64,000 nucleotides of DNA from an uncultured Acidimicrobiia bacterium (GCA_963786955.1 CAWBAT010000003.1:224001-288000); one strand, 5' to 3'; shown: positions 14,613 through 37,068, numbered from the stretch's first letter. Made by a program: numbers and translations. Notes: generated by a model not told the origin, from the sequence alone.

Positions 14613-15215
14613 TCTCGCCAAGGCGCGAAGGACGCCAAGAAAGGATTAAAACGGATAGGTTAGATTATTGTAGACGCATCTGTTTTAGTTTTGCTCAGAA
14701 TAAAGCCCGCGGGTGTTGCATACAATAAACTGTTGTGTACAGGCTCGGGGACGGAGAGGGAGAAAACCCATTGGATCTTTGCGCTCTTGGCGTCTTGGCG
14801 AGATGGCGTTACCTTTCATTTTGTTCAATCTGTGATATTCCAGCCGGAAGGAATCTGAAGCCAAATGGGCTGAAGATTGGGAATTTAGCAGCGCTTGCGC
14901 GGCGCGATGGTGCTCTGGGAGCGCGGGCATCTTGCCCGCAGACGTTACCGAAAATAGAGGTTTCTCTCGCCAAGGCGCATAAGGACGCCAAGATAAGGAT
15001 TAGAACGGATAGGTTAAATTGTTGTAGATGCATCTGTTTTAGTTTTGCTCAGAATGAAGCCTGCGGGTGTTGCATACAATAAACTGTGTACAGACTCGGG
15101 GACGGATAGGGAGAGAACCCATTGGATCTTTGCGCTCTTGGCGTCTTGGCGAGATGGCGTTACCTTTCATTTTGTTCAATCTGTGATATTTCCAGCCGGA
15201 AGGATTCTGGAGCCA
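14613..15215 (+). mobile_element. Two direct copies (14613-14863, 14965-15215) of a MITE-like unit bounded by TCTCGCCAAG...CTTGGCGAGA; interior resembles a decayed GxxExxY 5' end
   Basis: ~250 bp near-identical copies; interior reads D*N(R)IG*IVVDASV versus MDENQIGRIVVDTAI of 26934-27332. Confidence 0.7.
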
Positions 15216-15236
15216 GATAGGCCGAAACCGTTGAAA

Positions 15237-16493
15237 TCAATCCCATGATGGCCAGGTAAGCTGCCACGGCCGTTGCGCCGAATCCGCGAGCAATGCCGTC
15301 GCGATCAGCGGGGCGATTCCCCCGGACAGCACCGAGCTGAGCTGGTAGGTTAGCGAAGTACCCGTGTAACGCACCCGCGGCCCGAACAATTCAGACAAAA
15401 ACGCGGCTTGTGGACCGTACATCAAGTCATGTCCGACGTTGACGACGAGAATGATCGCGACGGCCATCAGCACCGGAGAACGTGAATTGAGGAGCCAGAA
15501 AAAGGGGTAGGCAAAAAACAGAATAAAGAGAGCACCCGCGAGATAGAGCGGACGGCGTCCCACACGATCCGAGAGAGCCGCGTAGCCGGGAACGGTGAAC
15601 AAACCAATGATGGCGGAAAGGATTACCCCGACCAGAGGAATACTTCGGGGAAGGCCGAGATGACTCTCCGAATAACTCAGGACAAAGACTGTGGCCAGGT
15701 AAAAGGAACCGTTCTCGGCGATCCTCATGCCCGTGCCCAGTAGCACGATTCGCGGATAGTTGCGAAACAGCTCGATGATGGGGAATGCAGACTCAGCTTG
15801 ATTTTCTTTCAACTTCTCAAAGACGGGTGATTCCAGGATTTTGAGGCGAACGAAAAGGCCAACCCCGATCAATACAAAGCTCAGCAGAAATGGAATTCTC
15901 CAGCCCCATGCGATGAATTGAGATTCGGAGAGGAAGGACGAGAGCAAGGCAAAAACGCCTGTTGATAGAAGCAATCCGGCTGAAACACCCATCTGGGGCC
16001 AGCTTCCATAAAAGCCGCGTTTCCCTTCGCTCGCATGTTCAACCGCCATCAAGACGGCCCCTCCCCATTCCCCGCCAACTCCAATGCCTTGGGCAAATCG
16101 CAGGACAACGAGCAGAATGGGCGCCAGAACTCCAACCGAGTGGTAGGTGGGAATAACCCCAATCAGAAAGGTGGCAATCCCCATGATGAGCAAGGAATAC
16201 ACGAGCATTGACTTGCGTCCGATTTTATCGCCGTAGTGGCCGAAGAGCACTCCGCCTACAGGGCGCGCCACGAAACCGACGGCAAAGGTCCCGAAGGCCG
16301 ATAACGTGCCAGCTAGAGGATTGACCATCGGAAAGAAAAGTTTATTGAAAACAAGCGCGGCGGCCGTCCCGTACAGGAAGAAGTCATACCATTCGATGCT
16401 GGTCCCGATGAAACTAGCCAAAATGACTTGGCGGATGGAGGACGTTTCTGGGAGCGCGGGCGTCCCGCCCGCAAATGTTTGCCATGGTTTCAT
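15237..16493 (-). CDS. MFS transporter, MHS family (ShiA-like); C-terminus probably frameshifted
   Basis: GTSIEWYDFF, GHYGDKIGRK, GGEWGGAVL and SDRVGRRP motifs. Confidence 0.9.
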   Translation of the reverse strand: MKPWQTFAGGTPALPETSSIRQVILASFIGTSIEWYDFFLYGTAAALVFNKLFFPMVNPLAGTLSAFGTFAVGFVARPVGGVLFGHYGDKIGRKSMLVYSLLIMGIATFLIGVIPTYHSVGVLAPILLVVLRFAQGIGVGGEWGGAVLMAVEHASEGKRGFYGSWPQMGVSAGLLLSTGVFALLSSFLSESQFIAWGWRIPFLLSFVLIGVGLFVRLKILESPVFEKLKENQAESAFPIIELFRNYPRIVLLGTGMRIAENGSFYLATVFVLSYSESHLGLPRSIPLVGVILSAIIGLFTVPGYAALSDRVGRRPLYLAGALFILFFAYPFFWLLNSRSPVLMAVAIILVVNVGHDLMYGPQAAFLSELFGPRVRYTGTSLTYQLSSVLSGGIAPLIATALLADSAQRPWQLTWPSWD

Positions 16494-16559
16494 GGACCGG
16501 GATGCTAGCTCTTGACCTAAGCAGTTTAGGAGTTTAAGTGGATTGTGTAAAATAAAAGA

Positions 16560-16725
16560 ATTGAAACTTTTCTGGATGCCGGAAATGGCAAAAGAATATT
16601 TTGATCGTTTTATTCGAGACTCCGGGCATTTTGAGAATGCTAAGGACTACATCCATGAGAATCCAGTAAAGGCTGGTTTATTTGCAAAGGCTGAGGACTG
16701 GGAATTTGCCAGCGCTCGCCGCAGC
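16560..16725 (+). pseudogene. C-terminal remnant of a REP-associated tyrosine transposase (RAYT)
   Basis: EYFDRFIRD..YIHENPVKAGL..AEDWEFASA; HUH-containing N-terminus absent. Confidence 0.7.
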
Positions 16726-16745
16726 GCGCCCGAAAAAGAGAATCT

Positions 16746-16921
16746 TCTCGCCAAGGCGCAGAGACCGCCAAGCAAGAACAGGATGAAGATCAGATTCATT
16801 GGGTCCTCTTGGAAAAAGGTTTAGTATACCTATAGAGAAATTAATTAATAGATGGAATTGCCCCGATCGTCAGCTGGTTGTCGATGAGTACCAGGGCCTT
16901 TGCGCTCTTGGCGGCTTGAGA
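16746..16921 (+). mobile_element. TCTCGCCAAG-bounded unit, decayed and internally deleted GxxExxY copy
   Basis: Begins QDEDQI..., ends LIDGIA-IV (cf. MKDGIFRIVNG), then inverted CTTTGCGCTCTTGGCGGCTT. Confidence 0.55.
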
Positions 16922-17068
16922 TTAGAGAATCCTCTCGACAACGTTTGGCATGAGAGATTCTTAATACTAAAGGTGACGCCAATCACAGCCTTCGGGGCCA
17001 TTTGCCGTTCGTTTCATTTCTTGATGGCTCGTATCTCTGTAGCGCGCTTCTCCAGCGCATCCGCCTCT

Positions 17069-18400
17069 TCAGTGCGATTGGTCAACCGATAAAGTAAAGC
17101 GATATTCTCTAAGGATGTGGCCACATCCGGATGGTCCGGGCCGAGGGCCTTCTCCCGGATCTGCCAGCGAGCGTTTGAAGAGAGGCTCGGCCGGTGCGTA
17201 CTGGCCTTCCAATTGGTACAGCGTCGCGAGGTTGTTCAGGCTCATGGCCACATCGGGATGGTCCGGGCCGAGGGTCTTCTCCTTGATTGCGAGCGAGCGC
17301 TTGTAGAGCGGCTCGGCCTGTGCGTACCGGCCTTGCGACTGGTACAGCTCCGCTAGGTTGTTCAGGTCCGTTGCCACGCCAAGGTGATTGGGACCAAGTA
17401 CTTTCTCGTCAATCGCCAACGAGCGTTTGAAGAGCGGTTCGGCCTTGTCATAATGGAATTGGCTTCGCTGCACCGCCGCGAGGTTGTTCAAGCAGATGGC
17501 CACGTCGGGATGTTCCGGGCCGAGAGCCTTTTCTGTGATTGCCAGAGAGCGTTCGAAAAGCGGCTCGGCCTGTGCGAACTGGCCTTGCGAATGGTACAGC
17601 GCGGCGAGATTGTTCAGGCAGGCGGCCACATCGGGATGGTCCGGGCCGAGAGACTTCTCCGTGATTGCCAGCGAGCGTTTGTAAAGCGGCTCAGCCTGTG
17701 CATATTGGCTTTGCGAATGGTACAGCTTCGCGAGGTTGTTTAAGCTGATAGCCACTTCGGGATGGTCCGCGCCGAAGGCCTTCTCCAGGATTGCCAGCGA
17801 GCGTTTGTAGAGCGGCTCGGCCAGCGCATACTGGTTTTGGTGTCTGTACAGCTCCGCGAGGTTGTTCAGGCTGGTGGCCACGTCGGGATGGTCTGGGCCG
17901 AGAGCCTTCTCCCGGATCGAGAGTGAGCGTTTGAAGAGTTGCTCGGCCTCCGCGTACTGGCCTAGCGAATGGTACAATTCGGCGAGGTTGTTGAGGCTTG
18001 TGGCTACATCGGGATGGTCCGGGCCAAGGGCTTTCTCAGAGATCGCTAGCGAGCGCTTAAAGAGCGGCTCGGCCTGCGCGTATTGGCCTTGCGAAGAGTA
18101 AAGCATCGCGAGGTTGTTCAGGCTCCTAGCCACAATGGGATGGTTTACTCCGTAATTTTTCTCGGCGACCTCGAGCGCCTTTTTCGCAACGATCACGGCA
18201 CGATCATATTCTCCATTTTGATAGAGCGACATCAGTTCCTGATTGAGAATTTCCCACTCGCCGCCAGTCTGTTGTGAGAATGCGGGGAGGGAACTCAGCA
18301 GGAGCAGTCCAACTGTTCCAATTCTTTGGAATATCACCGAATGCACACTGAAAGAGCAGGTTCTCATGAGGATATATTTTACGGCACGACTTGCTGGCAC
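17069..18400 (-). CDS. Exported TPR protein with 42-aa kinesin-light-chain-type repeats; C-terminal frameshift
   Basis: About 8 repeats of HPDVATSLNNLAELY..QGQYAQAEPLFKRSLAI.EKALGPD (126 bp period); hydrophobic signal segment. Confidence 0.9.
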   Translation of the reverse strand: MPASRAVKYILMRTCSFSVHSVIFQRIGTVGLLLLSSLPAFSQQTGGEWEILNQELMSLYQNGEYDRAVIVAKKALEVAEKNYGVNHPIVARSLNNLAMLYSSQGQYAQAEPLFKRSLAISEKALGPDHPDVATSLNNLAELYHSLGQYAEAEQLFKRSLSIREKALGPDHPDVATSLNNLAELYRHQNQYALAEPLYKRSLAILEKAFGADHPEVAISLNNLAKLYHSQSQYAQAEPLYKRSLAITEKSLGPDHPDVAACLNNLAALYHSQGQFAQAEPLFERSLAITEKALGPEHPDVAICLNNLAAVQRSQFHYDKAEPLFKRSLAIDEKVLGPNHLGVATDLNNLAELYQSQGRYAQAEPLYKRSLAIKEKTLGPDHPDVAMSLNNLATLYQLEGQYAPAEPLFKRSLADPGEGPRPGPSGCGHILREYRFTLSVDQSH

Positions 18401-18438
18401 GGGATGAGGATGGTAGTAATGCTGGTTGTCACGAAAAA

Positions 18439-18903
18439 TCCCCTCCTATTTTAGGAGGGGGTTAGGGGGTGGTAACGCCTGTCCTTCGCACCTAAGATCT
18501 GACGTTCAGTTAAGCTTGTTCGAATGGTCTCCAAAACCCCCTGAACATTATCCAACACGGCTCTGTTCTCAAAACGTAGTACTCGTACGTTAAGTTTAGA
18601 CAAATAAGCCGTTCGTCGGGAATCGTATTCCGCTTTGAATGAGTTGAAGTGACCTTCGCCGTCCAGCTCGATAGCAAGTCTGCACTCCGGGCAGAAAAAA
18701 TCCACAATGTAGCTCCCAATACTGTGTTGCCGGCGAAACTTCATCCCCTCTAGCTGCGAGCGTTGTAGGTTCTTCCAGAGAATAGCCTCTGCAGGAGTGA
18801 GTGAGTTTCGCAGAGATTTGCGTCTGGATTTCAGTGATTTGAGGTTATGGATTGGCATGTAGAACTTTACCACCCCCTGGCCCCCTCCTAAAATAGGAGG
18901 GGA
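18439..18903. repeat. 36 bp inverted repeats (18439-18474, 18868-18903), each with an internal hairpin, flanking the DUF559 gene
   Basis: TCCCCTCCTATTTTAGGAGGGGGTTAGGGGGTGGTA versus the reverse complement of TACCACCCCCTGGCCCCCTCCTAAAATAGGAGGGGA (2 mismatches); degenerate third copy ~18951-18986. Confidence 0.9.
18451..18858 (-). CDS. DUF559 / Vsr-like endonuclease domain protein
   Basis: LRNSLTPAEAILW, KFRRQHSIGSYIVDFFC, LAIELDGEGH and VLRFEN motifs. Confidence 0.9.
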   Translation of the reverse strand: MPIHNLKSLKSRRKSLRNSLTPAEAILWKNLQRSQLEGMKFRRQHSIGSYIVDFFCPECRLAIELDGEGHFNSFKAEYDSRRTAYLSKLNVRVLRFENRAVLDNVQGVLETIRTSLTERQILGAKDRRYHPLTPS

Positions 18904-18987
18904 ATTAGATGACGGACCAGCCTGGTCTTAGCAAACTTGCAGAAGGAGTTTGCCACCCCTTGCCCTCTTCTAAGTAGGCGGGGAGAA

Positions 18988-20673
18988 TCAGCTCGGCTCT
19001 TGAACACTCAAATATTGGTTGGCCTTCAAGTTTTTAAGAACCTGAACTTTTCCACAAGGCCAGGTGATAACAACCTGATCCACGGCAGGGCAGTTCCCCA
19101 ATCCAAAATGCACGCGCGGGTCATTTCTGGAAATATAGCTGCCACCATTTCGTACTGTATCCATCTGTTTCTTACCACACTGTTCAATTTCAACTTTTGC
19201 CCCGATAGCGTCTCGATTGCAACCCTTTCCCTTTAACTTGAACGCCATCCAAGAATTATCAGATGTCGCCAGGTTTTCTAATAGAAGTGGACGGCCTTCT
19301 ATCGGGAGCACAACCAAATCCATCTTGCCATCATTATTATAGTCCGCAGCGGCTCCCCCGCGGTAGGAGTTGTGATAAGGGAGCGGGGGGGTCGGGAAAA
19401 ACTTTGCTTCACGATTCTCGAATATGGCGACGGGTTGCAGGTAACTCGTGCTGCCGAGCTTGTCCGCTTCTGGATAGACATGGCCGTTGGCTGTCCAGAG
19501 ATCTTTATCCCCATCGTTATCGAAATCTGTAAAGCCGCATCCCCACCCGAGTAAAGGAAGAGTGATGATTCGCAGGCCAGCACTTAACGATATATCCTCA
19601 TAGAACCCAGGGGTCTTTTGGTGAAATAATGGGAAATAATCTTCGGAAAAAGTGGTGACCAGAAGGTCGATTTTCCCGTCATTGTCATAGTCTCCGACGG
19701 CGACCCCCATATTGGTCTGAGCACGGCCATCTGCATTCAGGGCCACGCCACTGTCGAGCGCGTCCTCTTTAAAGGTACCGTCACCCAGATTGCGATAAAG
19801 GTAATTGGGACAAGAGTCATTCGCTACAAAGATGTCCAATTTGCCATCCCCGTTAAAGTCGTCAAAGACTGCACTGAAACCGTAATACCCAGCGGAGTCG
19901 GTTACCCCGGCTTCATGGGTCACTTCCTTGAAGGTGCCGTCACCATTATTGCGATAGAGAAGATCCGCTTCTCCTTTTAAGCCTCGCGGCCCGCAGAAGC
20001 CTGAGATCCCATTATACCGACAAACCGGAGGTTTTGCAGGCAGCGCCAGCGCCTTGATATCGACATATCCCGCTATGTAAAGATCCAAGTTCCCATCGCC
20101 GTCATAATCTCCAAAGGCGCTTCCCGTGTGCCAAGATACCTGCTGTTTTAGCCCTGCGGATTTCCCCAGTTCCGAAAATGTTCCATCGTGATTGTTCCTG
20201 AAGAGAAGATCGACTCCAATCGTGGTGATGAGGATATCCACAAATCCATCATTGTCATAGTCGGCTGCGTTCGCCCCCGTACCCCAATAAGGGTTGAAAA
20301 TTCCTGCCTTTGTGGTGACATCTTGAAAGTGACCGTTCCCGAGGTTCCGGTAAAGATAAACCCCTTCCTTTTGGGGCTGTGGCGCGGATCCGGACAAGGT
20401 CTTCCGCAATTCTTCCAAGTTTGAACCATTGACAACTAATAAGTCCATCCAACCATCATTGTCATAGTCCAACCAGGCAGCCCCGCTCCCATTTGCATCA
20501 AAAATCCACGGTTTGTCTGATGCCCCGCATCGCATTGAGGCCATGATCCCAGAAGCAGCGGCGACGTCCTGGAGACTGATTTCGCTGTTTTGGCTATTCG
20601 AATTAGGGAACTGATTTTGAGAGCTTAGCAATGGCAGTATTAGGAATAATAGAATTAAGAGGGCACGAGTCAT
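18988..20673 (-). CDS. ASPIC/UnbV (CRTAC1-family) FG-GAP repeat protein
   Basis: Signal peptide, repeated DYDNDG..DL, NRDAIGAKV, SYISRNDPRVHFGLG and WPCG motifs. Confidence 0.9.
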   Translation of the reverse strand: MTRALLILLFLILPLLSSQNQFPNSNSQNSEISLQDVAAASGIMASMRCGASDKPWIFDANGSGAAWLDYDNDGWMDLLVVNGSNLEELRKTLSGSAPQPQKEGVYLYRNLGNGHFQDVTTKAGIFNPYWGTGANAADYDNDGFVDILITTIGVDLLFRNNHDGTFSELGKSAGLKQQVSWHTGSAFGDYDGDGNLDLYIAGYVDIKALALPAKPPVCRYNGISGFCGPRGLKGEADLLYRNNGDGTFKEVTHEAGVTDSAGYYGFSAVFDDFNGDGKLDIFVANDSCPNYLYRNLGDGTFKEDALDSGVALNADGRAQTNMGVAVGDYDNDGKIDLLVTTFSEDYFPLFHQKTPGFYEDISLSAGLRIITLPLLGWGCGFTDFDNDGDKDLWTANGHVYPEADKLGSTSYLQPVAIFENREAKFFPTPPLPYHNSYRGGAAADYNNDGKMDLVVLPIEGRPLLLENLATSDNSWMAFKLKGKGCNRDAIGAKVEIEQCGKKQMDTVRNGGSYISRNDPRVHFGLGNCPAVDQVVITWPCGKVQVLKNLKANQYLSVQEPS

Positions 20674-20882
20674 GGGTTATCCAGAATTTCCATTATGAAT
20701 TTTCCGACGGACACAAGTACATAAGTTGCAAAAATTCGCGCTAATTGTTGTAGCCGGGGTCGTTGACCCCGGGCCTAAATAGCGGGGCCAGCTACAATAC
20801 GGACTCCTGCAAGTAAGTGCTAGTATATACCAAACCGAGATGAGAAGGTAATCTGGGACCGCGGGCATCCTGCCCGCAGTCA

Positions 20883-20990
20883 ATGAAAGATAACCACGGG
20901 AGACACGGGGCTTTTCACTTGCAAAAGTAGAATAACCGCAGATAAACGCAGATTAATACATGGAAAATGAGAAATGAGCGATGAACAATT
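20883..20990 (+). repeat. ~110 bp dispersed repeat, inverted copy at 52952-53061
   Basis: ATGAAAGA.AACCACGGG.GACACGGGGCTTTTCACTTGCAAAAGTAGAATA.CCGCAGATAAACGC.GAT...GGAAAATGAGAAATGA matches the reverse complement of 52952-53061. Confidence 0.85.
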
Positions 20991-21805: not shown

Positions 21806-21821
21806 TGGCAATGCGATTGCA
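21806..21821 (+). promoter_or_regulatory. Putative sigma-54 (-24/-12) promoter of the TonB-dependent receptor
   Basis: TGGCAATGCGATTGCA fits TGGC-N7-TTGCW; lies in an AT-rich ~600 bp region about 200 bp upstream of the ATG. Confidence 0.6.
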
Positions 21822-22026
21822 TTGTTTTACATAACTGTGACAGAGTTGCGCGTTATTCGTTCGCCCGTCTAGAACCAATAAAATTGAAAGCAGTGACCAA
21901 GAATATTATGAGTGAGATGACCCAGTCATAAATTTCTCCGAAAAAATTATCGTGTTAAGCAAGCAAAGAATTTTGTCGATTCCCCTAACATTAAAGCAGT
22001 GCAATACCCTCTCAAAGGAGAACAGC

Positions 22027-25000
22027 ATGAGTAAGTTTGGGCAACGGATGTTAGTTTATGCCAGTGTGGTGATTCTTACCCTAGTAGCTACGGTTTCTCC
22101 CTTCATGGCGCAGACCAACCGGGGCACGATCACGGGAACAGTAACCGATGCGTCTGGAGGTTTGGTCGTGGGGGCCACTATTACTGCCATCAATACCGGG
22201 ACAAACGTTCGTACGACGGCAACAAGCGGAACAGGGGGGAGTTTTACCGTCCCGCTCCTGCAGGTGGGGCAGTATCAGGTGACGGTCGAACACCCGGGCT
22301 TCAAGAAATTTGTTCAGGGCAACATCATCGTAAACATTGCTCAAATTACTCGCGTGGATGCCAAACTGGAAATAGGGCAGGTCAGCGAATCCGTCGAAGT
22401 CTCTGCAGTGGCAGTCCAGGTTCAGGCCGATAGTTCTGAACGAGGTGTGATTATTTCGGGGAAGCAAGTTCTTGATTTGCCCTTGGTGGGGGTGCAGGAG
22501 GTACGCAATCCGGCCTTTTTCATTTCGCTCGTTCCTGGAGTCACCAGCAGAGGGACGGCTTATGGCACTTATAGCGGTGGCGGTCGGCAGTTAAATACCA
22601 CCGTCAATGGAAGCCCGAGCGGCAGTATTGAGTGGCTTCTCGAAGGCGCCAATATTGGTCAAGGAACCGTTTTGTCAGGGAGTTTTCAACAACTCCCCTT
22701 TCCCCCAGACGTGGTGGGAGAGTACAACGTGATGACGCTCCTTCCTCCGGCGGAATTCGGACAATCCGGGTTAGGAATCACCAACTTTACATTGAAGAGC
22801 GGGACGAACGGAATTCATGGCACAGTCTATGAGTATTTCCGCAACACTGCCTTGGATGCAAGGGGCTTTTACGCTGCGAAGACGCCTAGGAACATGCAGA
22901 ATGAATTCGGAGCGACTGTCGGCGGGCCGATCCACAAAGACAAGACTTTCTTCTATGGGTGGTATACGGGGTTCCGCAACATTAAGGAGCCTGGCGCCAA
23001 CTCTAATGATACTGTTCCCACCGATGCGATGAAGAACGGCGACTTGAGTAACATTCTCGGCCCCCAGATTGGCACTGATGCCCTGGGTCGGCCGGTTTTA
23101 TCAAATGCCATTTACGATCCGGCAACTACGCGACTCGTCCCGGCAGGTGCGATTGACCCGGGTACCGGTCTCGTCAACAGCAGTGGTGCCGCCGCGTGGA
23201 TGAGGGATGCGTTCCCGGGAAACATCATCCCGCAAAACCGGATTGATCCTGTGGCTAAGAATATGTTTTCGTACTTTCCGAGCGTGGGGACTTGCTCGAC
23301 TTGCCGCTATGGTTACCAGTACAGAATTGGAACACGGCGCAGGAATCACGTCAACCGACAGCATCAACAATTGGGGTGTCAAACTTGACCATGTGTTCTC
23401 CGACAAAAACCGGATCTATGGATCTTATATGTGGAAGAGTGAGTATGTTCCAGCGGGTTCGAAATATCCAGACCCGATTGGTGAAGGTTCCTACTCGACA
23501 AACGGATGGCGCGTTCTTCGCATCAGCCAGGATTATTTCATGAGGACGAACCTGGTCAACCACTGGACGTTTGGATTTAATCGGGAGTGCTAATGCCAGT
23601 CTCCCGACGGCGGGCTTTGGCTGGCCGGCAGTCCTCGGATATTCGGGTGTGCCTCAGACGGGTCTTGGGTCGGTCTTCCCGGAAAGTGATATCGCAGGCT
23701 TGGGGGCCACTTACGCGAGACAGGGTGTGAATACTTCATGCCAATAACAATTTCAGTATTGCGGACGACATCACCTGGATCAAAGGAAAGCATACGATCA
23801 AGGGCGGCTTCAGTTACATGAAGTTGCAAGTAAACCAGTTGGGAACCAGTTACTCGGCCAGTTATAACCAATACAATGCCGGACCGACCGGGCTTATGGA
23901 CTCCAAATTTTATGATGCCGGCTGCGCGGTAGGTGGCAACTGTACAGGGATGGGAGTTGGAAGCTTCCTCTTAGGCTTGCCGACCAGTGGCACGGTAGGC
24001 ATCACTGCGACAGAGGTCGCGGATCGAATGGGGCGATGGGCAGGTTATGTCCAGGACGATTACAAGATGAGCTTCAAAGCTTACCTTCAACATGGGTCTT
24101 CGTTGGGACGCGTTCCTGACCCACCGTAGACGCGCACAACCAAAAATCATGGCTGGATCCATTCACGATGAATACCGCTATCGGGATCCCAGGTGCCATG
24201 GTATATGCGTCAGATGCAAAGCGTGCGCCATCGACTACTTATATGAAGAATTTTGGACCACGTTTTGGGTTTGCCTATAGCCTCAACCCGAAGACGGTAA
24301 TACGGGGTGGGTACGGGATGCTATACACAGCCGGAGGGGCCCAACGTTCCTTGGCAAGTGCTTGGGAACAATTGGGGTACAATGGTTCCCAGGGTTGCGG
24401 CCAGTCTTCCCTTGGCGGGTTTTCAGGAGCGGTGTCTTGCTCTCCCCAGGGTCTAGCGATGTCCACATGACCCTCGCCACCGGTTGGCCTGCTCAATACT
24501 TCCTACCTGTGGGGAATCTCACTCAAAACGCCTTTGATGGCCAAGGTCCACCGACGTGGGGGCCATGGCCTGGGGATGAGATCCCGCCCAATATCCAAAC
24601 TGCGCAGCTTCAGTATCCAGCGGCAGCTTCCAGGGCAGATTATTCTCGATGTTGGCTATGTTTGGACCAAAGGAACACATTTGTCGAGTCGTTTGATCCA
24701 CAGTAATGTGGTGGAGGTCTAAATCAGAGCTTCGGGGCCGATCTCTTCAAGAACATTGCGGATCCTACCATCCAGGCTCTTCCCAGTTGTACAGGCGATG
24801 CCGATCGATCCCGCGAACGGCAGGCATGCTCCATTCACGGGGTTCCAGACTCTGTGGGGTAGCGGTGCCCAACTGGGCCAGGCATTGCGTCCAATGCCGC
24901 AGTACCGGAACGACAGCGTTCAAGGGCTTTCGCAATTGCGGGATTTGGAGAAACTCAGGGGATGTCAACCTATAATGCCCTCCAAATTCAGGCCAGGAAG

Positions 25001-25776
25001 AATCTATCCTATGGCTTGAGCTTCCTGGTATCGTACACCTGGTCCAAGACTCTTACGAATGCAGGAAGTCTAATCAATGAATTCGCAGGATTCACCCAGG
25101 ACTTCTATAACACAGGTGGTGAGAGAGCGCTGAGCCTCAATGATTATCCGAGTAACTTGGCGATTTCCTATCAGTACGAATTGCCCTTCGGTCCGGGCAA
25201 GAAATGGGCGAACCAAGGGGGAGTGATTAACAAGGTGGTTGGAGGATGGAGCGTTGCCGGATTCAGGTCTTACCGGAGCGGCGCCCCTCAGGGGGTCTTT
25301 TCTTCAGGTAATTCCCTTAACCCTTACATGTCGGATAACAGTTTCACCACCCGCGCCAACCGCGTTCCCGGCGTGCAGAAGTATTCGGATGCCTGGCTCA
25401 ATGGGACCTGGGATCCCAATGGTGCTGGAGCGCTGGGGCAACGATACAACATCAATGCTTGGAATGACCCAGCTCCTTTTACGTTTGGGACCACTCCAGT
25501 CAACGGATGGCGATATCCGCCAATTGCCTTACCTGAATGAGGATATCTCCATCATCAAACGGACCAACATTAATGAACGGGTTAGCGTTGAATTCCGTTG
25601 TGATTTCCTGAACGCCTTCAACCGTGTCCTTTTCGGCTTCGATCAGGGTGGGGACCAGTACGGCCAAGCTATCAGGCGGGCGGTATTGGAGGTGGCGTGA
25701 ATGGTACTTCGGCCGCGTGGCAGTCCAGACGAATGCCCCGCGCGAAATTCAATTCGGATTAAAGATCAACTACTAA
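22027..25776 (+). CDS. TonB-dependent receptor (Oar-like) with carboxypeptidase-regulatory-like N-domain; multiple frameshifts
   Basis: RBS AAGGAG; [63 protein letters not shown]; ends [12 protein letters not shown]. Confidence 0.88.
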
Positions 25777-25849: not shown

Positions 25850-26587
25850 GTCATCTTCTGCAGGGATTCTCTCGCCAAGGCGCTAAGGACGCCAAGACAA
25901 GTGAAAGAATCACTCGCCAAGGCGCGAGGGACGCAAAGAATGGGTTAGGGCGAAATAAGTCATATTGTTTTGTATTTAAACACATCAGTGAATCACGAGT
26001 TTGAAACGGATTTGTGTGAGACGGCTTATTTAGTAACGATTTAATGATTAGGACAGCACAATATAATTGCCAACGGCCTTACAGAAATCCCAAATATTAC
26101 TTTGCGCACTTGGCGTCTTGCGAGAGTAGAGAATGCTCTCGACAAGACGTAATGGAGCGCCAAGACAAGTGAAGGAATCTCTCGCCAAGACGCAGAGGAC
26201 GCCAAGAATAGATGAGAACCCGAAACGTAGCGTCTGATTGCAAACACCGAAGTTTCAGTAAACAAAACTCTTGGGTCTCGACAGTTGGAATGCGTGTGTG
26301 AGGCAATACAGCTTGGGAACTGCGAGAGGCGGAATTGGAGTTCGAGAGGCAACACTCTACCCAACTCGACGAACGCCTTATACGAAATCGATAAGGTCTT
26401 TGCGCACTTTGCGTCTTAGCGAGAGTAGAAAACGTTCTCGCCAAGGCGCAGAGGACGCCAAGAATAGATGGGAATCAAATAGGTAAGATTGTTGTGGACT
26501 TCGCCGTTGCGTTACGCCGGGGGCTTGGACTGGGGTTGATAGGATAGGTCGAGAGACCCGGGGACTCTTGCAGTCCAAAGGTGTGCT

Positions 26588-26725
26588 TGGCAACCCGGCT
26601 TCTATAAACGAGGATTCGGTCGGCGAAACAGTTTAAATTCATGTCAGTGTATGTTGAAGAAAATCCCGTTCGGGCCGGCCTAGTGAACATACCTTCCGAT
26701 TGGAAATTGTCGTCTACCCATCCAA
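26588..26725 (+). pseudogene. Second C-terminal RAYT remnant
   Basis: Manual translation WQPGFY.. / IRSAKQFKFMSVYVEENPVRAGLVNIPSDWKLSS (one frameshift). Confidence 0.65.
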
Positions 26726-26933
26726 GCTATCAGAGGATCGTGACCAAGCCCTGGCCTTGGATGTTTGAAAAGGAGTGAGCAGGAAAAAAATGGGAACCCT
26801 GACCGGGTGTCATTCGCCGCTGAGGACAGCGGCTCCCACAATGAGGAGTTTCCATTAAAATCTTTAATAGGGTGCCTGAGATTGTGAAACCTAGTGAAGG
26901 AATCTCTCGCCAAGGCGCTAAGGACGCAAAGAC

Positions 26934-27332
26934 CTATTCTCTTTCGGCGAGGCCGTTGACGATTCGGAAAATGCCATCCTTCATCTGTGCTTCCCCGAAG
27001 TTCAGCAAATAGCCCAGCTTCATGCCCGTGAGCTTTAAATAAGTAAGCAGTTGTTTCTTGTGGGCATTATTGATCGCCTCGATGGACTTCAACTCCAGAA
27101 TTACCTTCCCTTCGACGACGATGTCAGCTCTGAATCCCTCGTCAAACCTGAATCCACCGTACTCAATGGGAATGGGGATTTGTCGCTCAACCGTCAACCC
27201 TCGTTCTCGCAGTTCCTTCGCCAAAACAACCTCGTACACTGTCTCCAACAATCCTGGCCCAATTCCTCGGTGTACCGCAATGGCTGTGTCCACAACAATC
27301 CGACCTATCTGGTTCTCATCCATACTTGGCAT
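26934..27332 (-). CDS. GxxExxY protein (PD-(D/E)XK-like nuclease), intact
   Basis: GPGLLETVYE motif, FRADIVVEGKVILELKS, QLLTYLKLTG..LGYLLNFG; likely start at MDENQ. Confidence 0.92.
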   Translation of the reverse strand: MPSMDENQIGRIVVDTAIAVHRGIGPGLLETVYEVVLAKELRERGLTVERQIPIPIEYGGFRFDEGFRADIVVEGKVILELKSIEAINNAHKKQLLTYLKLTGMKLGYLLNFGEAQMKDGIFRIVNGLAERE

Positions 27333-27628
27333 CCATTACGTCTTATTGAGACCGGTCTCTACTCTCGCCAAGACGCCAAGTGCGCAAAGTGATCTATGGG
27401 ATTTCTGCAAGGCCGTTGGCAATTAATATTGTGCCGTCCTTGAATAATTAAATCGTGACCAAATAAACCGTCTCAGATAAATTCGGTTCAAGCTCGTGAT
27501 TCACTGATATGTTTGTATACACAACTATATCACCTATTTCGCCCTAACTCATTCTTTGCGTCCTTTGCGTCTTAGCGAGAAAAGGCTTCAATATTCTGTA
27601 TCGGGAAGGGACCCGACTGTATAAGAGC

Positions 27629-28828: not shown

Positions 28829-28894
28829 CTAAGAATGCCCTGAGTTTTCGGTAGCCCGGTGCTGAACTTCGAGGCTAGGAGTTTCGACGTCTTC

Positions 28895-29630
28895 AGCGGC
28901 TTTGCCGCTAGATGTACGGAAAGTCTCTGACTTTCCGCGCCACCGCTCCTCGGTTTCTAGGGGCTATGCCCCAGCTGCAGATTTCCTCCACTTTATGCTA
29001 TCGACGCCGACATCCAATGGTTCGTTTTCGGTCGCAAGTCTCTGCCAAACCCTGGCACTTGACCAAGAATAATCCATGGCCTTTTCCACCAGTCCGGCAC
29101 GCACTGGGTTCTGGTGAATGTAATTTACCTTCTGCATCAACACCTTTTCGCTGAAGATGGAAAAGACGTTCGATTCATGACCCCAGAGCGAGTAAAGATG
29201 GTGCCGTTTCCCCTCGTCGTGCCGCAGTTTTCGCAGCGACTGTTCGTACTTTTGCCGCCTTAAGTACTCGATCACCTCGTGAGCAATCGTGCCTTTGATA
29301 TAGCGAAGCATCACAGAGGCTTGCCTTGGGTTGTCGGTTAACAAATGCAAGTGATCCGGCATGAGGACATAGGCCAGCAGCAGGAACCCACAAGATTGAC
29401 GGGCTTGATTGATCCCTTGACATGTGATGGCCTTAATAGGATCAGTCTGAAACACTGGGAGACGGTCTTTTGCAACGGCGGTGATGTAAAGACTGGGTGT
29501 ATCTCTAGACACTCGAAACCTGCTAGTCGTCATCTTTGGCCTCACGGACTGTAGGGCGTAGCCCCAGAATCAAAGATGCTGAATTGGCGGAAAGTCAAAG
29601 ACTTCCCGTACATCAGGCGGCAGAGCCGCC
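28895..29630. repeat. ~80 bp inverted termini of the RAYT gene, each with three small hairpins
   Basis: Left GCGGCTTTGCCGC / GATGTACGGAAAGTCTCTGACTTTCCGC / GGGGCTATGCCCC; right GGGCGTAGCCCC / GCGGAAAGTCAAAGACTTCCCGTACATC / GCGGCAGAGCCGC in mirror order. Confidence 0.85.
28964..29533 (-). CDS. REP-associated tyrosine transposase (RAYT / TnpA-REP)
   Basis: YITAVAKDRLPVF, HUH motif AYVLMPDHLHLL, catalytic YIHQNPVRAGL, DYSWSSA. Confidence 0.9.
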   Translation of the reverse strand: MTTSRFRVSRDTPSLYITAVAKDRLPVFQTDPIKAITCQGINQARQSCGFLLLAYVLMPDHLHLLTDNPRQASVMLRYIKGTIAHEVIEYLRRQKYEQSLRKLRHDEGKRHHLYSLWGHESNVFSIFSEKVLMQKVNYIHQNPVRAGLVEKAMDYSWSSARVWQRLATENEPLDVGVDSIKWRKSAAGA

Positions 29631-30938: not shown

Positions 30939-31385
30939 GGTGTTCCTCCATTCATTTGCCTTAAGCTGTGAAAAACTTCGAATACGCCGCGTGAGGTTGA
31001 GGCAATGAGAAAGCCTCAAGCCTACAATGACTGCAAGGAGTTGTGTAGGTGTTGTAAGCGGATTCCCCTGACCAGGCGGAGTATTTTCAAGCATTCCCTT
31101 CAGAGGGGGTGAGAAAAGTGAGGTCATCGGGTAATGGTTATGTCCAGAACTCAGTGTGATTGATTCCTATTCCTGCCGACCTAATTGGAGGCTGGAGGGG
31201 ATCAACGATACACTCGCGCTCACATTATCGCCCATTCCAAGACCAACCGTGGAAGACCGAAACGCCAAGGACGCGAAGCGCGCCAAGGAAAATATGGATG
31301 CAACTGAAGACTCACGGGTGGTAAGAGAATCGTACCGGGGTACTGTGCCTAGCATCAGCACGACGGTCTTCGTGGGTAATGGGGT

Positions 31386-32570
31386 TCAGTTGTTCCCTGC
31401 GGCATTTTGCTTCTCCATGGCCTTCTCGTTTGTTGCTTTCATCTTCTCTTTCTTCTTCTCTCGTTCTTCGTGATCGAGCTTTTGGAAAACTTCAAGGTGG
31501 TATTGCCGTTTGTCTGGCTGTTGGAGCCGCGTATAAACTTGTGCAAGCTGGTAATGCACCATTTTTTCATTGGGCCCCAATTCTTCGGCCTTTAACAAGA
31601 GCTTAAGTGCGTCCTCGAACCTTCCCTGTGCGATATAACACTTGCCCAGCTCTAAATACCCCAGCATGAACAAGGGGGCGGCTGCCACAACAGTTTCCAG
31701 GCGGGGAACGGCTTCCGGCATCCTCTGACCCTTAATCAGGATGTCGGCCAGGTAAAAATTGGCCATCGGGTGGTTGGGGTCTTCGCTTAAGGCGAGTAGC
31801 AGTTCCGGTTCGGCAGTTAGGGTAATCGACTTTATTGTAATAAAGCAATCCCAGCGCGAAATGGATTCCTGGAAAATTAGGGTCTTTTCCAAGAGTTCTT
31901 TGTATTTTTCGATGGCTTCAGGGTATTTTTCCCCGTCTGCAAAGCTTTCTGCCTTGAAAACCAGCATGTAAGTCGAGTTTGCATCGAGTGTCGCCCAACT
32001 GATTGAGAGCCTCAAGCGTCGCGGACTTAAGCAGTTTAATCAGTTGATAAAGAACCTTTTGATCGGTGGGGTCTTCCTCAAGCAGGATTTCATATTGTCG
32101 TCAGCGCGTCGGATTGGCGATGCAAAGAGCTGATAAGCCATGGCCGCATAGTAGCGAGCTCGGCGGTATTTGGGTTGGCCTCCAGTCTCCTTGTTAAATG
32201 CGTCTATAGCTTTTTCGAACTGATTGATCCCAGAGTAGGAAAGCCAAGATAGAAGTTGACTTCGGGATACTGAGGGGCCTGTTGCAATACTTTGTGGAAG
32301 GTGTCGATGGATTCCTGAAATTTCATTTGGGTCTGATAGATAAGCCCCAGCCGTTTAAGAGTTCGGGTTGTTGGGGAAAGTTCGCCGCGGCCTCTACATA
32401 AATTTTCTCCGCGCCTGCAAAATCCGAACGGTGTCTCCATTTCCTTGGCCAGACGAAAATAATCCTCAAGGCTTTTAGAAACAGCCTGGGCCATTGCTTA
32501 CTGCGGGGAAAAAGTAGGGGGAGAAGACAAGGAAGGGTACAGAAAAATCGGAATTAAGGGTCGATGAAAT
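31386..32570 (-). CDS. Exported TPR protein, frameshifted; start approximate
   Basis: Fragments LKRLGLIYQTQMKFQESI, YPEVNFYLG, NHPMANFYLA and VHYQLAQVY match the adjacent TPR paralogs. Confidence 0.75.
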
Positions 32571-32810
32571 CTTCGGCTAAACACAATTCAAATTATCATG
32601 GGAATCAAAGAATTTGCAAGATCGAATTGAGCGAGGGTTCTGCCAGAGATACTGAGAAAGTAAGTTATTCAGCGGGTTGGGCGTTTTTGGACATTTGTGA
32701 AGGCCAGAGGCCTACATCACAACCTTGTGGCGCAGGCGCCCCGCCCACCTTCTGAAGATGTGCCTATAGGTGGGTAGGCTCCTAGCCGAGCGCGCCGGAT
32801 TGAAGAAATC

Positions 32811-33110
32811 CTCTCGCCAAGACGCAGAGGACCCCAAGCTGTCGGGGGGAACCAGATTCGGACGGATCGTTGTAGATCCCGCCATGTGGTCCACCGAGGA
32901 CTCGGACCAGAGCTATTTGAAACCGGTCGTACTTTGCAGAAGCCTTAATGAAGGACGGCACCACCCGAATCGTCAAAGTGCCTTGATCCTTCAGAAAGGA
33001 CTCAAAAGAAATTGTCTTTGACAGACCTAGTCCACTTAGCAAAGCAATTATGATGCCTGTTTGCAAATTGTTGCGCCCTTATTTGGTTCTAGTCTGTCCT
33101 CTGCGTCCTA
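32811..33110 (+). mobile_element. TCTCGCCAAG-headed, internally deleted GxxExxY remnant fused to a 36.5-kb-type unit
   Basis: Reads NQ(I)GRIVVDPAM-VHRGLGPELFET joined to EALMKDGTTRIV; 32970-33107 resembles 36510-36642. Confidence 0.75.
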
Positions 33111-33167
33111 GGAGTTTGACGAATATGATTTTCGTTTAATTTCAATAATCCGCAATGGAGGTGCGGA

Positions 33168-36100
33168 ATGGATCGAAGAGAATTCCTACAAGCTGGCTTG
33201 ATATCCGCGGCTTGTCCGCTGGGAAGTCACTTCAATTGGGAGATTCCAAGCGGTTAAAAAAATTCCAAGTCGGGGAATCAATGGCAATCTTGATCTGACC
33301 AACGATGAGCTAGACTGGCGTCTCGCATGGGACGAAAATGGTTTGAAAAGCACGGGCTTCGTCAATAAACTCACGGGCCGCCCCTTCCTGTTCTCCTCAG
33401 CAGAGGAAATTTGCCTTGACATTCTCGGCCTCCAAGGTGCGAATTGAAATTCCTTGGTGGAAGTTTCGTCTTTGGTCCAGACGATCATCCTGTTGCCCGC
33501 GAGCAGGAGCAAGGATTGAAGCGAGGCTTTCATCTTAAGAACGAGCCCGATGCAAGTTGGGGAGCAACCGAGAATTTATTATTGAGAAAGCTTCGCGGCG
33601 CTGGGGAGTCACAAAGAGATTCCAGTACGATGGATACGGCTGGTTCCGTCATTGGTTTGCGCTGCCACAGGAGGGACAGGGAGAAAAAATCTTCTTCGTC
33701 CTGGGTGGATATGACTGCCAGGATTGGAACGAATACTGGATCTACGTGAATGGTGAGGAAATAGGACACAGAACTTCAGAGGGCCGATGGCGACAGCCAG
33801 GCCAGTTTGTCCTTGCCCCGGAATGCCGGGATATTCGGCACTTATTTTGGTCCTGGTGGACAAAAATCTCTTGGCCATCCGAACCCGTGGATTTGATAAA
33901 AGCTTTGGTGGTTACAGCGAGGAGATTTTACGAAAATACGTTTATAAACCCGTCCTTGTGGATCAGTATATTTCGGTCGGACAGCCTTTCATTCGGCTCA
34001 CCGATTTTCAGGTAAAGAAGTCTCTCAACAGAGCTGGAAAATCAAGTCAGAGTTCGAACTCTTCAGCCCGTCCTTGTCCGTCTTCGTTTCTGCCCGCTAC
34101 ACGCTCAACGGCCCTCTCCGGCGCAAATCATTGGTGATCAAAAACCATGGTGACAAGGATCTTCTCCTTTTGGATGTCGGTCTCGACAACTTCTCTCTTA
34201 ACGTTCCCACCTCAGAAGGAGGATCTGGGGAGCCTTTATTCATTGACGGCGAAGCGTTCTGCGCCATTGAACATCCAGCGGGATTGAACCAAGGGGGTAA
34301 AGGCAGCGTCAAACTCACACATTATCCTGGGATCCATTTGCCTTCCGGGGGCCACGTCCTCAGTCACGCAGCCTTATTGGGGGTTTCCAACACAGGTGAA
34401 ACATTCAATCATTTCACGTCTTATTTACAGGCCAACAGTCCCCGGAAGAAGAAATTCCTCTCCGTGTATGATCCCTTTGGCATGAACAACCAATGGGGAT
34501 GGTGCCCGACCCTCAATGACCTTGAAATGCTGAATGGCTTGAAGGTTTTGGAAGAATGGCAAAAGCAAGGAATCCATTTTGACTATTACGTTCCGGACTG
34601 GGGATGGTTGGATAACAGCTCGGACTTGACAAGGTTCAGACCAGAATGTTTTCCCGAAGGGCCACGTAAGGTTGTCGGATCGTGTCAACGCTCTCGGAAC
34701 CAACTTTGGATTGTGGTTTTCGGTCAGTAACGCGGCGGTATCCTGCGGGGAGTACCCGCCTGTTGAGCCCAGCCGGGTGCCGATTCCTGGAGGCCCGGCT
34801 CAGCCGGCGCCTCCGGTGCAGGCTTACAGAAATGGATATCTTGCCAGGGAGAATTTGAATGGCAACCTATGTGTGGCGTCAGAGCCTTATTTCACGATCC
34901 TCAAAAATGCGATTCTTTATCATATCCGCGAGAACAACCTCAAGCTCGTGAAATTAGACATGGGGAGCTATTACTGCAACAGTTCCGAGCACAACCATTT
35001 GCCGGGAAAATTCTCTGTTGAGAAGATGCATGATCGTCTGATCGAATTGGCCCAGCGCCGCGCGATAAGCCGAACCTGAAATTTGTATCGTATGGTATTG
35101 GGGTGTACGGTCCCCGTTTTTCGCATTATACGGGGACTTCATATTTGAATCGGGATTATTTATGGAAGGTTCGGGAACGAGCTGGGTCCCTACTTTGTAT
35201 TACCGCGACTCGGTCACCCTGAACCTGGACATGAGTACGCAGTTTGCAAAAACCATTCCTTCAATCAATAAGGACAGCCTCGGAGTATGGCTCGCAGAGA
35301 ATCGCTGGGGGAATTTCATGGCCCATGAGCGCTGGCGGGAGGCTTTGGTTATGGATCTGGGGCGGGGAAGTCTATTGTTCCCTCAACTGTGGGGGAGACA
35401 TATACCTTCTCGACCAGGAGGATCTCGTTTTTCTGGGGGAGATGCAGTCACTCTCCAGGAAGAACGAATCTCTCTTCCTCCAACGGCGGCATCATTGGGG
35501 TGATCCCTGGAAGAATGAGATCTACGGATACACTTATTTTCAGGGAACGCACGGTTTTGTGTTTCTAAGCAATGTCCACTTCATGGCGCGCAAAGTGGTG
35601 TTGCCACTTGGGCCAACTCTCGGCTTGAAAGCAGAATCAGGCAAAAGTGTCGAACTCATCAGCCATTTCCCGGAGAAGAAAAGAATGATGCGTCAAGATG
35701 GGACGGATTACCGCACAGGGGAATCCGCCGAGTTATGGTTGCGCCCGTTTGAAGTTTTGATGATCGAGGTTTTTCCCTGCGAAACCGGGGACAAGATCCC
35801 CAGGCTGCCGCACGAGACATCTATTCTTCAACAGGCGTCCAACATGGCTACTCCTCTCGCTCTTCATCGGCTCGCTCAGGAAGAGGATTGGATGCGGATG
35901 GAGTTTGCCGATGCAAAGCGATTTGAGGCCCAAGGGAAGAGAAAGAAGGTCTTTTCATTTGCAACCGAGTTTGATTCACTGGAAGGGAAACAGGCCGTAC
36001 TGGCAATCTCCATCCGATTGAGGGCGGGGATGGAAGACTGGCGTTATGCGCCTTCCGTTGCCGAAATCGTCCAGGTCGTGGCGCGACTGGGCAACCAAAC

Positions 36101-36345
36101 TGCTCCATCTCATTCCCGTTCCAGATGCGAGACAGTTTGGCAATACTCAAAGCGCCGGGGGGTCTTGGGTGGTCTATAAATGCAGGTTGAGTCTGCAGGC
36201 AGTTCCTTCGGAGTTTCGGTTCGCCGTTCACTGTTACTTGCCGGAGCATGTCGTTCCGGAGATCGAAGGCTGGTTCCTGAGCCAGTGGTGGGAGGAGCGA
36301 AGTCGGCCCGTAGCGGAAGGTTTTTACGCAGATAGCCCTTCCTAG
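33168..36345 (+). CDS. Large Tat-exported glycoside-hydrolase-like protein (clan GH-D-like TIM barrel, sugar-binding N-domain); many frameshifts
   Basis: RBS GGAGG, MDRREFLQ; YDGYGWFRHWF, FDYYVPDWGW, FGLWFS and LVKLDMG segments in successive frames. Confidence 0.6.
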
Positions 36346-36367
36346 ATTGTCACTTTGTCTGGGAGCG

Positions 36368-37068
36368 CTCTTACGGAGCTTCTGGACTTTTCCGGTATTA
36401 GGCTATAGACAGGAGGCTCCTGACGGAGCCGGCTTGTAAACAACAGTGCTCTCGCCAAGAGGCCAAGTGCGCAAAGAACCGCAGTAGATTCCTTTCAGGC
36501 CATTGACTGTCAAAGTGCCTTCATCCTCCAGTAAGGCTTAAGAAGAAATTGTCTTTGACAGACATAACCCACTTAGCGAAGCATGGCAAAGTCTGTGCAC
36601 AAGATGATGCGACCGATCTGGTTCTAATCCATCCTCTGCGTCCTTCGCGCCTTGGCGAGAGGATTTTCCTTAATATTCAAAACAGATTGTGAGTCAGGAA
36701 CAGAGCCGCATAGCGCGACCTGTTTTCGATTCAGTAGTCAGGGCGGTCTCGCTGAGACCGCCGTCCACAGGCCTCTCCTACGGAGCTTCTGGACCTTTTC
36801 CGGTATTAGGCTATAAACACGAGGCTCCTGACGGAGCCGGCTTATAAACAACAGTGCTCTCGCCAAGAGGCCAAGTGCGCAAAGAACCGCAGTAGATTCC
36901 TTTCAGGCCATTGACTGTCAAAGTGCCTTCATCCTCCAGTAAGGCTTAACAAGAAATTGTCTTTGACAGACATAACCCACTTAGCGAAGCATGGCAAAGT
37001 CCGTTCACAAGATGATGCGACTGATCTGGTTCTAATCCATCCTCTGCGTCCTTCGCGCCTTGGCGAGA
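36368..37068. mobile_element. Two ~295 bp direct copies (36368-36660, 36775-37068): GCTCC..CGGAGC REPs plus a TCTCGCCAAG-bounded decayed GxxExxY unit (minus strand)
   Basis: Near-identical copies; the minus strand reads MD*NQIGRIIL...MK...VNGLK between the inverted repeats. Confidence 0.8.

Follow-up and report, generated by a model that had tools for sequence, protein, structure and literature searches.

The described systems that come closest to the element considered here are REPs (repetitive extragenic palindromic sequences) and REPIN elements associated with RAYT genes, the insertion sequences (IS) with their miniature inverted-repeat transposable elements (MITEs), and free-standing homing endonuclease genes. 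REPs are described as carrying GTAG or CGTC tags (PMC3733652), REPIN-RAYT systems as mostly vertically inherited (10.1101/2022.05.22.493013), and the open reading frame (ORF) of 23S rRNA intervening sequences as uncharacterised and occurring in rRNA insertions (10.1101/2024.02.27.582315). The subject of this report is a 64,000-nucleotide stretch from an uncultured Acidimicrobiia bacterium (GCA_963786955.1 CAWBAT010000003.1:224001-288000; "the window", with positions counted from its first letter), which contains an intact gene of the GxxExxY nuclease family (PF13366/TIGR04256) surrounded by short inverted repeats. A sequence-only reading of the window had taken gene and repeats for a proliferating element with non-autonomous, decayed copies; on balance, we lean towards regarding the region between 14,613 and 37,068 as holding members of a compact selfish mobile cassette, composed of word-array ends and a nuclease gene and decaying to gene-less units.

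The protein family and its multi-copy habit are already known. A survey of PD-(D/E)XK proteins lists the family with function unknown (PMC3424549), and its mention in PMC8934634 is incidental to that paper. Full-text searches, with subscription journals outside their coverage, found no description of word-array ends, gene-less derivatives or mobility; the REP, RAYT and MITE work that they returned makes no link to the GxxExxY family, and terms for intervening sequences, four-helix bundles and mobile elements gave nothing relevant.

A nuclease gene between arrays of seven-nucleotide words

The intact gene, located by the sequence-only reading, encodes a 132-residue protein (P0001) that matches both PF13366 (PDDEXK_3; 2.3e-40, 138.1 bits, curated cut-off 22) and TIGR04256 (GxxExxY; 1.2e-40, 138.5 bits, curated cut-off 35). 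The motif that gives the family its name is found at G27-x-x-E30-x-x-Y33; in a 44-sequence alignment E30, D70, E80 and K82 are invariant, the latter three constituting a D...ExK triad, with conservation of at least 90% at G27 and Y33. The AlphaFold (AF2) model of P0001 is of high confidence (pLDDT 96.3), and its order of alpha and beta elements is that expected for a restriction-endonuclease-like fold. All structures matched by this model in the PDB are PD-(D/E)XK proteins, and all matches are weak: the best is Cas4 (4ic1; E 1.6e-3, TM 0.57), Hjc Holliday-junction resolvases, lambda exonuclease and (tRNA-)splicing endonucleases are among the others, and none is found at E <= 0.001, nor does the sequence itself match any PDB chain. 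P0001 is most likely an active metal-dependent nuclease, as predicted from these features. A homodimer prediction with two copies of the protein, which scored 0.00 in two runs without controls, is evidence neither way.

The family is very large, with 19,454 cluster representatives (50% identity clusters, E <= 0.001) returned by an exhaustive search. At least 12 of its top 150 representatives are ~250-295 aa long and contain two PDDEXK_3 stretches (e.g. P0122, P0124 and P0126); this tandem form, confirmed for P0122 and P0169, may represent fused pseudo-dimers or read-through of tandem copies. Six longer family proteins contain PDDEXK_3 domains only (twice in tandem), apart from one NUDIX domain that is probably a read-through call.

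In the window, the left end of the element (head) consists of TCTC followed by three CGCCAAG-like 7-nt words at a spacing of 8-9 nt, directly after which the gene starts with MDENQ; the right end (tail) has the same layout inverted, so that its terminal GAGA falls just past the stop codon. The repeat TCTCGCCAAG, with at most one mismatch, occurs 25 times in the window against an expectation of 5.41 +/- 2.18, a count reached by 0/100 shuffles, and all 15 exact matches fall inside 14613-37068. Five intergenic stretches between 14.6 and 37.1 kb contain all units, of which 8 are complete and 5 partial. Around the intact gene, which had been described as having a degenerate repeat just before its start and an inverted one just after its stop, the latter is present with its three words and the former is reduced to about one.

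The same build recurs in other genomes. The best 80 of 163 relatives in a genome_contigs scan, 63-87% identical, were kept and correspond to 79 loci (1.07 Mb in total; individual loci bear L numbers below) from hosts that include Acidobacteriota, Bipolaricaulota, Planctomycetota, Thermotogota, Verrucomicrobiota, Pseudomonadota, Bacteroidota, Spirochaetota, Chloroflexota and others; the genome of the window is not represented. At 77 of these loci, two or more words form a run within 160 nt of the gene, the remaining two having an interrupted (L004) and a degenerate (L059) head. Three-word runs within 150 nt are found upstream of the gene at 64/79 loci, downstream at 66/79 and on both sides at 55/79. 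The density of runs, 7.8/kb at 0-150 nt from the gene, falls to 1.5/kb at 150-500 nt, then to 0.33 and finally to ~0.1/kb beyond 1 kb, and block-shuffled loci have only 17 runs in 1.07 Mb (0.016/kb); the enrichment at GxxExxY termini that the sequence-only reading had named as a check is thus found. Chance or low complexity, considered as the origin of the repeats, is ruled out by the shuffle counts, by this run density and by the number of CGCAGAT matches given below.

Overall, the element measures ~0.46-0.52 kb and is made up of a gene of 127-132 codons, starting 18-50 nt after the head words, and of ends with three words each (range two to five). Where ORF calls of close homologues are over-extended, they include translations of the flanking words at both termini. 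Orthologous copies may differ in word number, as in the tails of L043 and L056 and the heads of L052 and L063 (3 vs 4 and 3 vs 5 words), which suggests that entire words are gained or lost in a slippage-type manner. A cultured Bacteroides finegoldii record has the same build, with CACAGAG-type words around an annotated, 42% identical GxxExxY gene located between radA and another housekeeping gene. No recurring partner gene accompanies the element, the flanking ORFs being unrelated housekeeping genes (first 60 of 134 scanned), and only 3 candidate ORF families other than GxxExxY are bracketed by word runs in the 79 loci.

Words are of four types (CGCnAAG in 50 loci, CGCnGAG in 13, CACnGAG in 9 and CACnAAG in 5) and change in concert within an element. 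At position 4, head words have A in 42/51 cases, and tail words have C or A in 22 cases each, T in 6 and G in one of 51. Mapped onto a quick maximum-likelihood tree of 75 locus proteins and that of the window (four loci with premature stops were left out), word type requires 11 changes, compared to 26.7 in shuffles, none of which (0/200) is as low; one clade (support 93) unites all 13 CAC-type rows and one other, from four phyla. Clustering of this kind is inflated by near-copies, yet the clades mix host phyla: word type goes with the protein tree rather than with the host.

Moreover, the window contains a second lineage, at 2.3-5.0 kb (2271-4960) and thus outside the coordinates of the sequence-only reading. 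It is represented by a near full-length pseudogene with one in-frame stop, whose identity is ~30% to P0001 and 52.5% to the second GxxExxY gene of a deltaproteobacterial bin (L009), and by a CGCAGAT-type three-word repeat with 4 matches in the window against 0 expected. In L009, too, the second gene has CGCAGAT-type words on both sides; the two lineages, 30-34% identical to each other in the window as in L009, are therefore each associated with words of their own within a single genome, so that it is the gene, not the host, to which the repeats belong.

Transfer between phyla and gene-less derivatives

Near-copies of the whole element are shared by hosts from different phyla. Between L012 (Lentisphaeria) and L014 (Thermoguttaceae, 7.5-Mb contig), identity is 96.2% over 524 bp, a span that begins 45 nt ahead of the start codon and ends 53-95 nt past the stop codon; L014 and L020 (Calditrichales, 4.7-Mb chromosome) are 87% identical, and the corresponding values are 86% for L033 (Prosthecobacter) and L072 (Lamprobacter) and 84% for L053 (Opitutales) and L065 (Bacteroidaceae). 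In these pairs the likeness stops at the repeats, and the flanks of L012, L014 and L020 are unrelated. The number of synonymous substitutions per site (dS), 0.09-0.52 for the pairs of L012, L014 and L020 and 0.09-0.7 for cross-phylum pairs overall, is far too low to reflect vertical descent between phyla.

The ends are preserved as sharply delimited blocks. Among 253 pairs of 23 elements, the 28-nt ends have identities of 0.78/0.77, or 0.72/0.71 without the six picking bases, compared to 0.50/0.49 with one partner shuffled and to 0.47 for the adjoining 28 nt on the outer side, so that conservation begins at TCTC and ends at GAGA. Of 276 pairs (24 elements), 170 have four-fold degenerate sites saturated at 27% identity, with ends still 76-78% identical. 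Cross-phylum transfer as one unit with sharp boundaries supports the proposal of the sequence-only reading that repeat, gene and repeat form a mobile whole.

Gene-less head-tail units of 66-250 bp, 92 in number, are distributed over 43 of the 79 loci, and gene-less hairpins far from any gene occur at 6-10 times the shuffled rate. At L011, nine tandem empty units, in which the regions of the start and stop codons almost abut, precede a gene-bearing unit and one more empty one; arrays are also present in L062 and L075, and may lie upstream of the gene, downstream of it or on both sides. In Lamprocystis purpurea DSM 4197 (L063), a CACAAAG hairpin is nested within a CACGGAG hairpin on both sides of the gene (9820-9995 and 10390-10620). 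The Calditrichales chromosome (L020) has two gene-bearing copies in tandem at 10001-10978, ~190 nt apart. At one orthologous intergenic site, L043 has two gene-less units and L056 ~90 nt of unrelated sequence, the one presence/absence difference that was found. None of the three checks named by the sequence-only reading, on unit interiors, on repeats at gene termini and on presence/absence, thus speaks against it. L052/L063, considered as a filled/empty pair, was rejected because the difference consists of another repeat family. The hexamer TTCGAA lies outside both ends in three of four related loci (L014, L017 and L020), and at the fourth (L012) it is degenerate on the left and TTCGAC on the right; being itself a palindrome, the hexamer is ambiguous.

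Within the window (Table 1), all ten unit positions named by the sequence-only reading exist to within 1 nt, and the peptide relics that it quoted can be read there; the eight complete gene-less units measure 176-245 bp. Aligned to the whole element by blastn, the units map to positions 50 to ~116-221 and ~400-497, that is, to its head and tail portions only, which is the pattern of internal deletions and bears out their earlier interpretation as internal-deletion derivatives. In tblastn searches of the window with the intact protein, 26458-26541 (E 5.6e-7) and 27552-27451 (E 0.002) are followed by 36632-36567 (E 0.041), 32889-32924 (E 0.099) and others that are weaker, to 0.8. The interiors were compared to the coding sequence by local alignment after trimming 30 nt from each repeat-bearing end (head end only for U8 and U10), with 200 dinucleotide shuffles as control: 8 of 10 units beat all shuffles (z 5.2-20.6), in agreement with the claim that they are decayed pieces of the gene, and the similarity of the units at 16746 and 25912 is weak and, for each taken alone, not significant. 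Because three unit pairs are local duplications, two of them in tandem with flank included and the third inverted (25913-26156 vs 27332-27579), the window holds fewer independent events than units; at a second site, 32972-33110, there is a truncated copy of the 36.5-kb unit type, ~85% identical over ~140 nt.

Table 1. Features of the two GxxExxY lineages in the window
Feature	Position	Strand	Evidence and remarks
Second lineage, duplicated N-terminal fragment	3863..3991	minus	92% repeat
Second lineage, three-word CGCAGAT-type repeat in four copies (4019, 4169, 4731, 4903)	4019..4927	plus	diverged one near 2271
Second lineage, near full-length GxxExxY pseudogene, one in-frame stop	4350..4703	minus	tblastn E 3.8e-15; vs L009 second gene E 4.5e-37
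U1, complete gene-less	14613..14803	plus	0/200 shuffles; folded ends pair, z -2.9
U2, tandem duplicate of U1	14965..15154	plus	352-bp period incl. flank; 97% and 94%; 0/200 shuffles
U3, gene-less, degenerate tail	16746..16921	plus	directly after RAYT-like C-terminal relic 16612-16746; 19/200 shuffles
U4, solo head	25870..25898	plus	motif matches
U5, complete gene-less, inverted duplicate of U9	25912..26127	plus	85% and 93%; 9/200 shuffles
U6, solo degenerate head	26137..26170	plus	in inverted duplicate of 27332-27368
U7, complete gene-less	26180..26424	plus	blastn to element positions 50-221, 434-497; 0/200 shuffles
U8, head and N-terminal relic (26458-26541), without own tail	26436..26600	plus	tblastn E 5.6e-7; z 20.6; followed by RAYT-like relic 26614-26757
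Tail of intact copy	26905..26933	minus	three inverted words, end 1 nt after stop codon
Intact GxxExxY / PD-(D/E)XK nuclease gene (P0001)	26934..27332	minus	132 aa ORF; profile matches
Eroded head of intact copy	27325..27351	minus	overlaps start codon; about one recognisable word; homologous to degenerate head 26137-26170
U9, complete gene-less: head, N- and C-terminal relics, tail	27363..27580	minus	head-to-tail upstream of intact gene; tblastn E 0.002 and 0.77; blastn to element positions 50-166, 420-497; 0/200 shuffles
U10a, head, N-terminal and C-terminal relics, without tail	32812..32983	plus	element ~161-399 deleted; blastn to element positions 50-160 and 400-451; z 16.1
U10b, truncated U11/U12-type copy	32972..33110	minus	tail-to-tail with U10a; 85% and 81-84%
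U11, complete gene-less	36450..36660	minus	0/200 shuffles
U12, tandem duplicate of U11	36858..37068	minus	408-bp period, 96%; 0/200 shuffles

Proposed propagation and competing explanations

The comparisons above show a unit of ~0.5 kb that is inherited and transferred as a whole, is constrained in both gene and ends, and decays to gene-less hairpin units that persist and multiply. As a selfish cassette, it moves between genomes as one unit and lands in intergenic DNA, where internal deletion turns it into gene-less units that are copied in part by local tandem or inverted duplication. Its two ends can pair as a hairpin, with the gene in the loop or, in other genomes, between complete gene-less hairpins. 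The nuclease would recognise the words of its own lineage at the ends, or in a hairpin or cruciform formed by them, and cut there; copies of the unit would then be made by host recombination or repair, at sites that are new or that already bear repeats, much as in homing, and gene-less units may be served by the nuclease in trans. PD-(D/E)XK enzymes can cut DNA and are not known to join it; host repair is invoked for this reason, and a homing-like, repair-templated route is more likely than classical cut-and-paste. We suggest, as a tentative extension that is rather doubtful at present, that a new class of mobile elements in prokaryotes could have GxxExxY/PDDEXK_3 as its only protein, a nuclease of ~130 aa that reads lineage-specific arrays of 7-nt words in hairpin-forming ends and propagates units with and without the gene by cleavage and host repair.

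Several observations weigh against a self-mobilising cassette. That the nuclease itself mobilises the repeats is inferred. In the flanks of 40 loci, inspected by eye and without statistics, no target-site duplication of the kind sought by the sequence-only reading is evident; no clean empty site was found, and the L043/L056 difference is a replaced intergenic stretch rather than a clean insertion. The arrangement of gene and repeats is not fixed, the nearest upstream and downstream runs having orientations +/- in 25, -/+ in 8, +/+ in 10 and -/- in 10 of the 79 loci, and head and tail words are not perfect complements, since their position 4 differs systematically. In the window, little is left of the left end of the intact copy, RAYT-like relics or GC-rich REP-like sequence often lie before heads, which fits untidily, and, as the region comprises three local duplications and units that mostly differ in decay, much of its pattern could arise without transposition. 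Most of the 79 loci come from metagenome bins, whose host labels may be wrong, the key cases being on 4.7-7.5 Mb contigs or in isolates. Finally, the ratio of nonsynonymous to synonymous substitution rates (dN/dS) is 0.02-0.13 in 13 of 14 computable pairs; this strong purifying selection on the gene is tighter than usual for decaying selfish nucleases, and a gene beneficial to the host would also fit.

The last point leads to the alternative that survives best, although we consider it unlikely: GxxExxY may be an ordinary accessory gene, for example for defence or repair, that travels on other vehicles, its repeats being cis-regulatory or RNA-structural flanks and the gene-less units products of in-situ decay and local duplication, with nothing that mobilises itself. 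Roles considered for such flanks are pairing between 5' and 3' untranslated regions (UTRs), stabilisation of the transcript and termination. Besides the selection on the protein, this explanation would accommodate the position of the head 18-50 nt before the start codon, which is the expected place of a ribosome-binding region, the good pairing of head and tail on folding (z -4.3 to -8.2 for short units), the local duplications of the window, the lack of evident target duplications and a weak Cas4-like match in PADLOC (E 0.0045). It has difficulty with the cross-phylum pairs, in which homology ends at the repeats and leaves no vehicle sequence in common, and with the scarcity of the gene on known vehicles (8 of 72,556 plasmid records and none of 50,697 records in a phage collection). 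UTR pairing, moreover, misfits the 8 of 79 loci in which the gene does not lie within one hairpin, as it does in some others, but between complete hairpins; the bias at position 4 of head and tail words speaks against simple selection for pairing, and gene-less hairpins occur far from genes, arrayed, nested and differing between orthologous sites.

More improbable is a REP/REPIN-type nature of the words, with a Y1 (RAYT-like) transposase moving them in trans and GxxExxY as a passenger of the loop. The appeal of this reading stems from the RAYT-like C-terminal relics that lie directly before or inside three units (16612-16746, 14869-14895 and 26614-26757) and from an intact Y1_Tnp/IS200-like ORF on the minus strand at 28964-29545 (PF01797 3.3e-6), 1.4 kb from the unit cluster. 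This Y1 gene, however, is flanked by an inverted pair of its own (~28915-28940 and 29588-29613), which has no relation to the TCTCGCCAAG repeats; word type tracks the GxxExxY tree and is not the same in two GxxExxY lineages of a single genome; the ends start with TCTC rather than with GTAG or CGTC tags. A tblastn search with the Y1 protein of the window detected no relative in the 79 loci, a weak test that uses one query, considering that a RAYT may act from anywhere. Least credible is a toxin-antitoxin-like module whose repeat RNA neutralises the nuclease, reminiscent of type III systems, in which tandem repeats precede an endoribonuclease gene: the nine tandem units before the gene of L011, the arrays of L062 and L075 and the tRNA-splicing endoribonucleases among the weak fold matches would suit it, but most loci have a single head and tail and the few arrays lie on either side of the gene, the D...ExK triad is typical of metal-dependent DNases, and gene-less units stand alone, far from any gene.

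In summary, the mobile-cassette reading provides a very large family (PF13366/TIGR04256) with a concrete, testable role and names the lineage-specific word arrays as its partner in cis. It would also account for a class of intergenic repeats, and for spurious ORF calls that are over-extended, in many phyla, and documents recent transfer of a 0.5-kb unit between phyla. If the nuclease does mobilise the unit, transposition or homing would here follow a route that employs a new enzyme class, variants of the unit would constitute natural pairs of protein and recognised DNA, with word and protein changing jointly, and a function would be available for a family of at least 19,454 clusters (50% identity) across bacterial phyla.

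Neighbouring sequence and comparison with known systems

Other repeat-associated sequences share this part of the window. A DUF559/Vsr-like endonuclease ORF on the minus strand (18451-18873; PF04480 1.6e-32) lies between 40-nt inverted repeats (18436-18475 and 18867-18906) that are 93% complementary, and thus represents another small nuclease gene within a repeat pair; its protein has no tblastn match in the 79 loci. The RAYT-like C-terminal relics next to three GxxExxY units may reflect target preference, a composite element or a shared junkyard. Further GC-rich REP-like families occupy the same intergenic stretches (10978, 14470, 32693 and 40966; 14914, 16447, 20852, 52910 and 63558), together with a REP-like pair at 20883-20960 and 52983-53060, and two copies of one such family (D10) lie 120-140 nt before a GxxExxY head. 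An outer-membrane beta-barrel (OMP_b-brl_4; 21952-25540) is split into four ORFs and PSCyt2/PSD1 (7562-10449) into several, these pieces being pseudogenes or the result of assembly frameshift errors. A general scan of 27 window ORFs, not aimed at integrons, turned up no integrase.

As far as the protein is concerned, Cas4, Hjc and lambda exonuclease share its predicted fold class and its D...ExK triad, but the structural likeness is weak and neither the iron-sulfur cluster of Cas4 nor a CRISPR context is present. The intervening sequences of 23S rRNA (23S_rRNA_IVP, four-helix-bundle), which are bounded by inverted repeats and suspected of horizontal movement, resemble the element in combining such bounds with a small ORF and differ in protein fold; no rRNA or other Rfam family reaches its gathering score in the window or in L012, L014, L017 and L020, and no tRNA or tmRNA was found in the window. 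Free-standing homing endonuclease genes are likewise lone small nuclease genes, selfish, horizontally transferred and without partner genes, whereas they are not known to have the conserved inverted ends made of word arrays and the abundant gene-less hairpin units seen here. With IS elements and their MITEs, the cassette has in common terminal inverted repeats in both intact and gene-less copies, as well as internal-deletion derivatives that outnumber the intact ones; it differs from them in that it contains no DDE, serine, tyrosine or HUH transposase, its sole ORF being a PDDEXK_3 protein of ~130 aa, and in that no target-site duplication was detected in the 40 loci inspected by eye.

Another close parallel in architecture is with RAYT/REPIN systems, in which a small gene is also flanked by short inverted palindromic repeats of a type cognate to the gene lineage, and many gene-less, hairpin-forming copies populate intergenic DNA, often as arrays (here 8 complete units in the window and 92 in 43 of 79 loci). 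Despite these similarities, the enzyme flanked by the repeats is PD-(D/E)XK instead of Y1/HUH, the ends are arrays of 7-nt words that start with TCTC instead of REPs tagged with GTAG or CGTC, and the element, often present in multiple copies, transfers rampantly between phyla.

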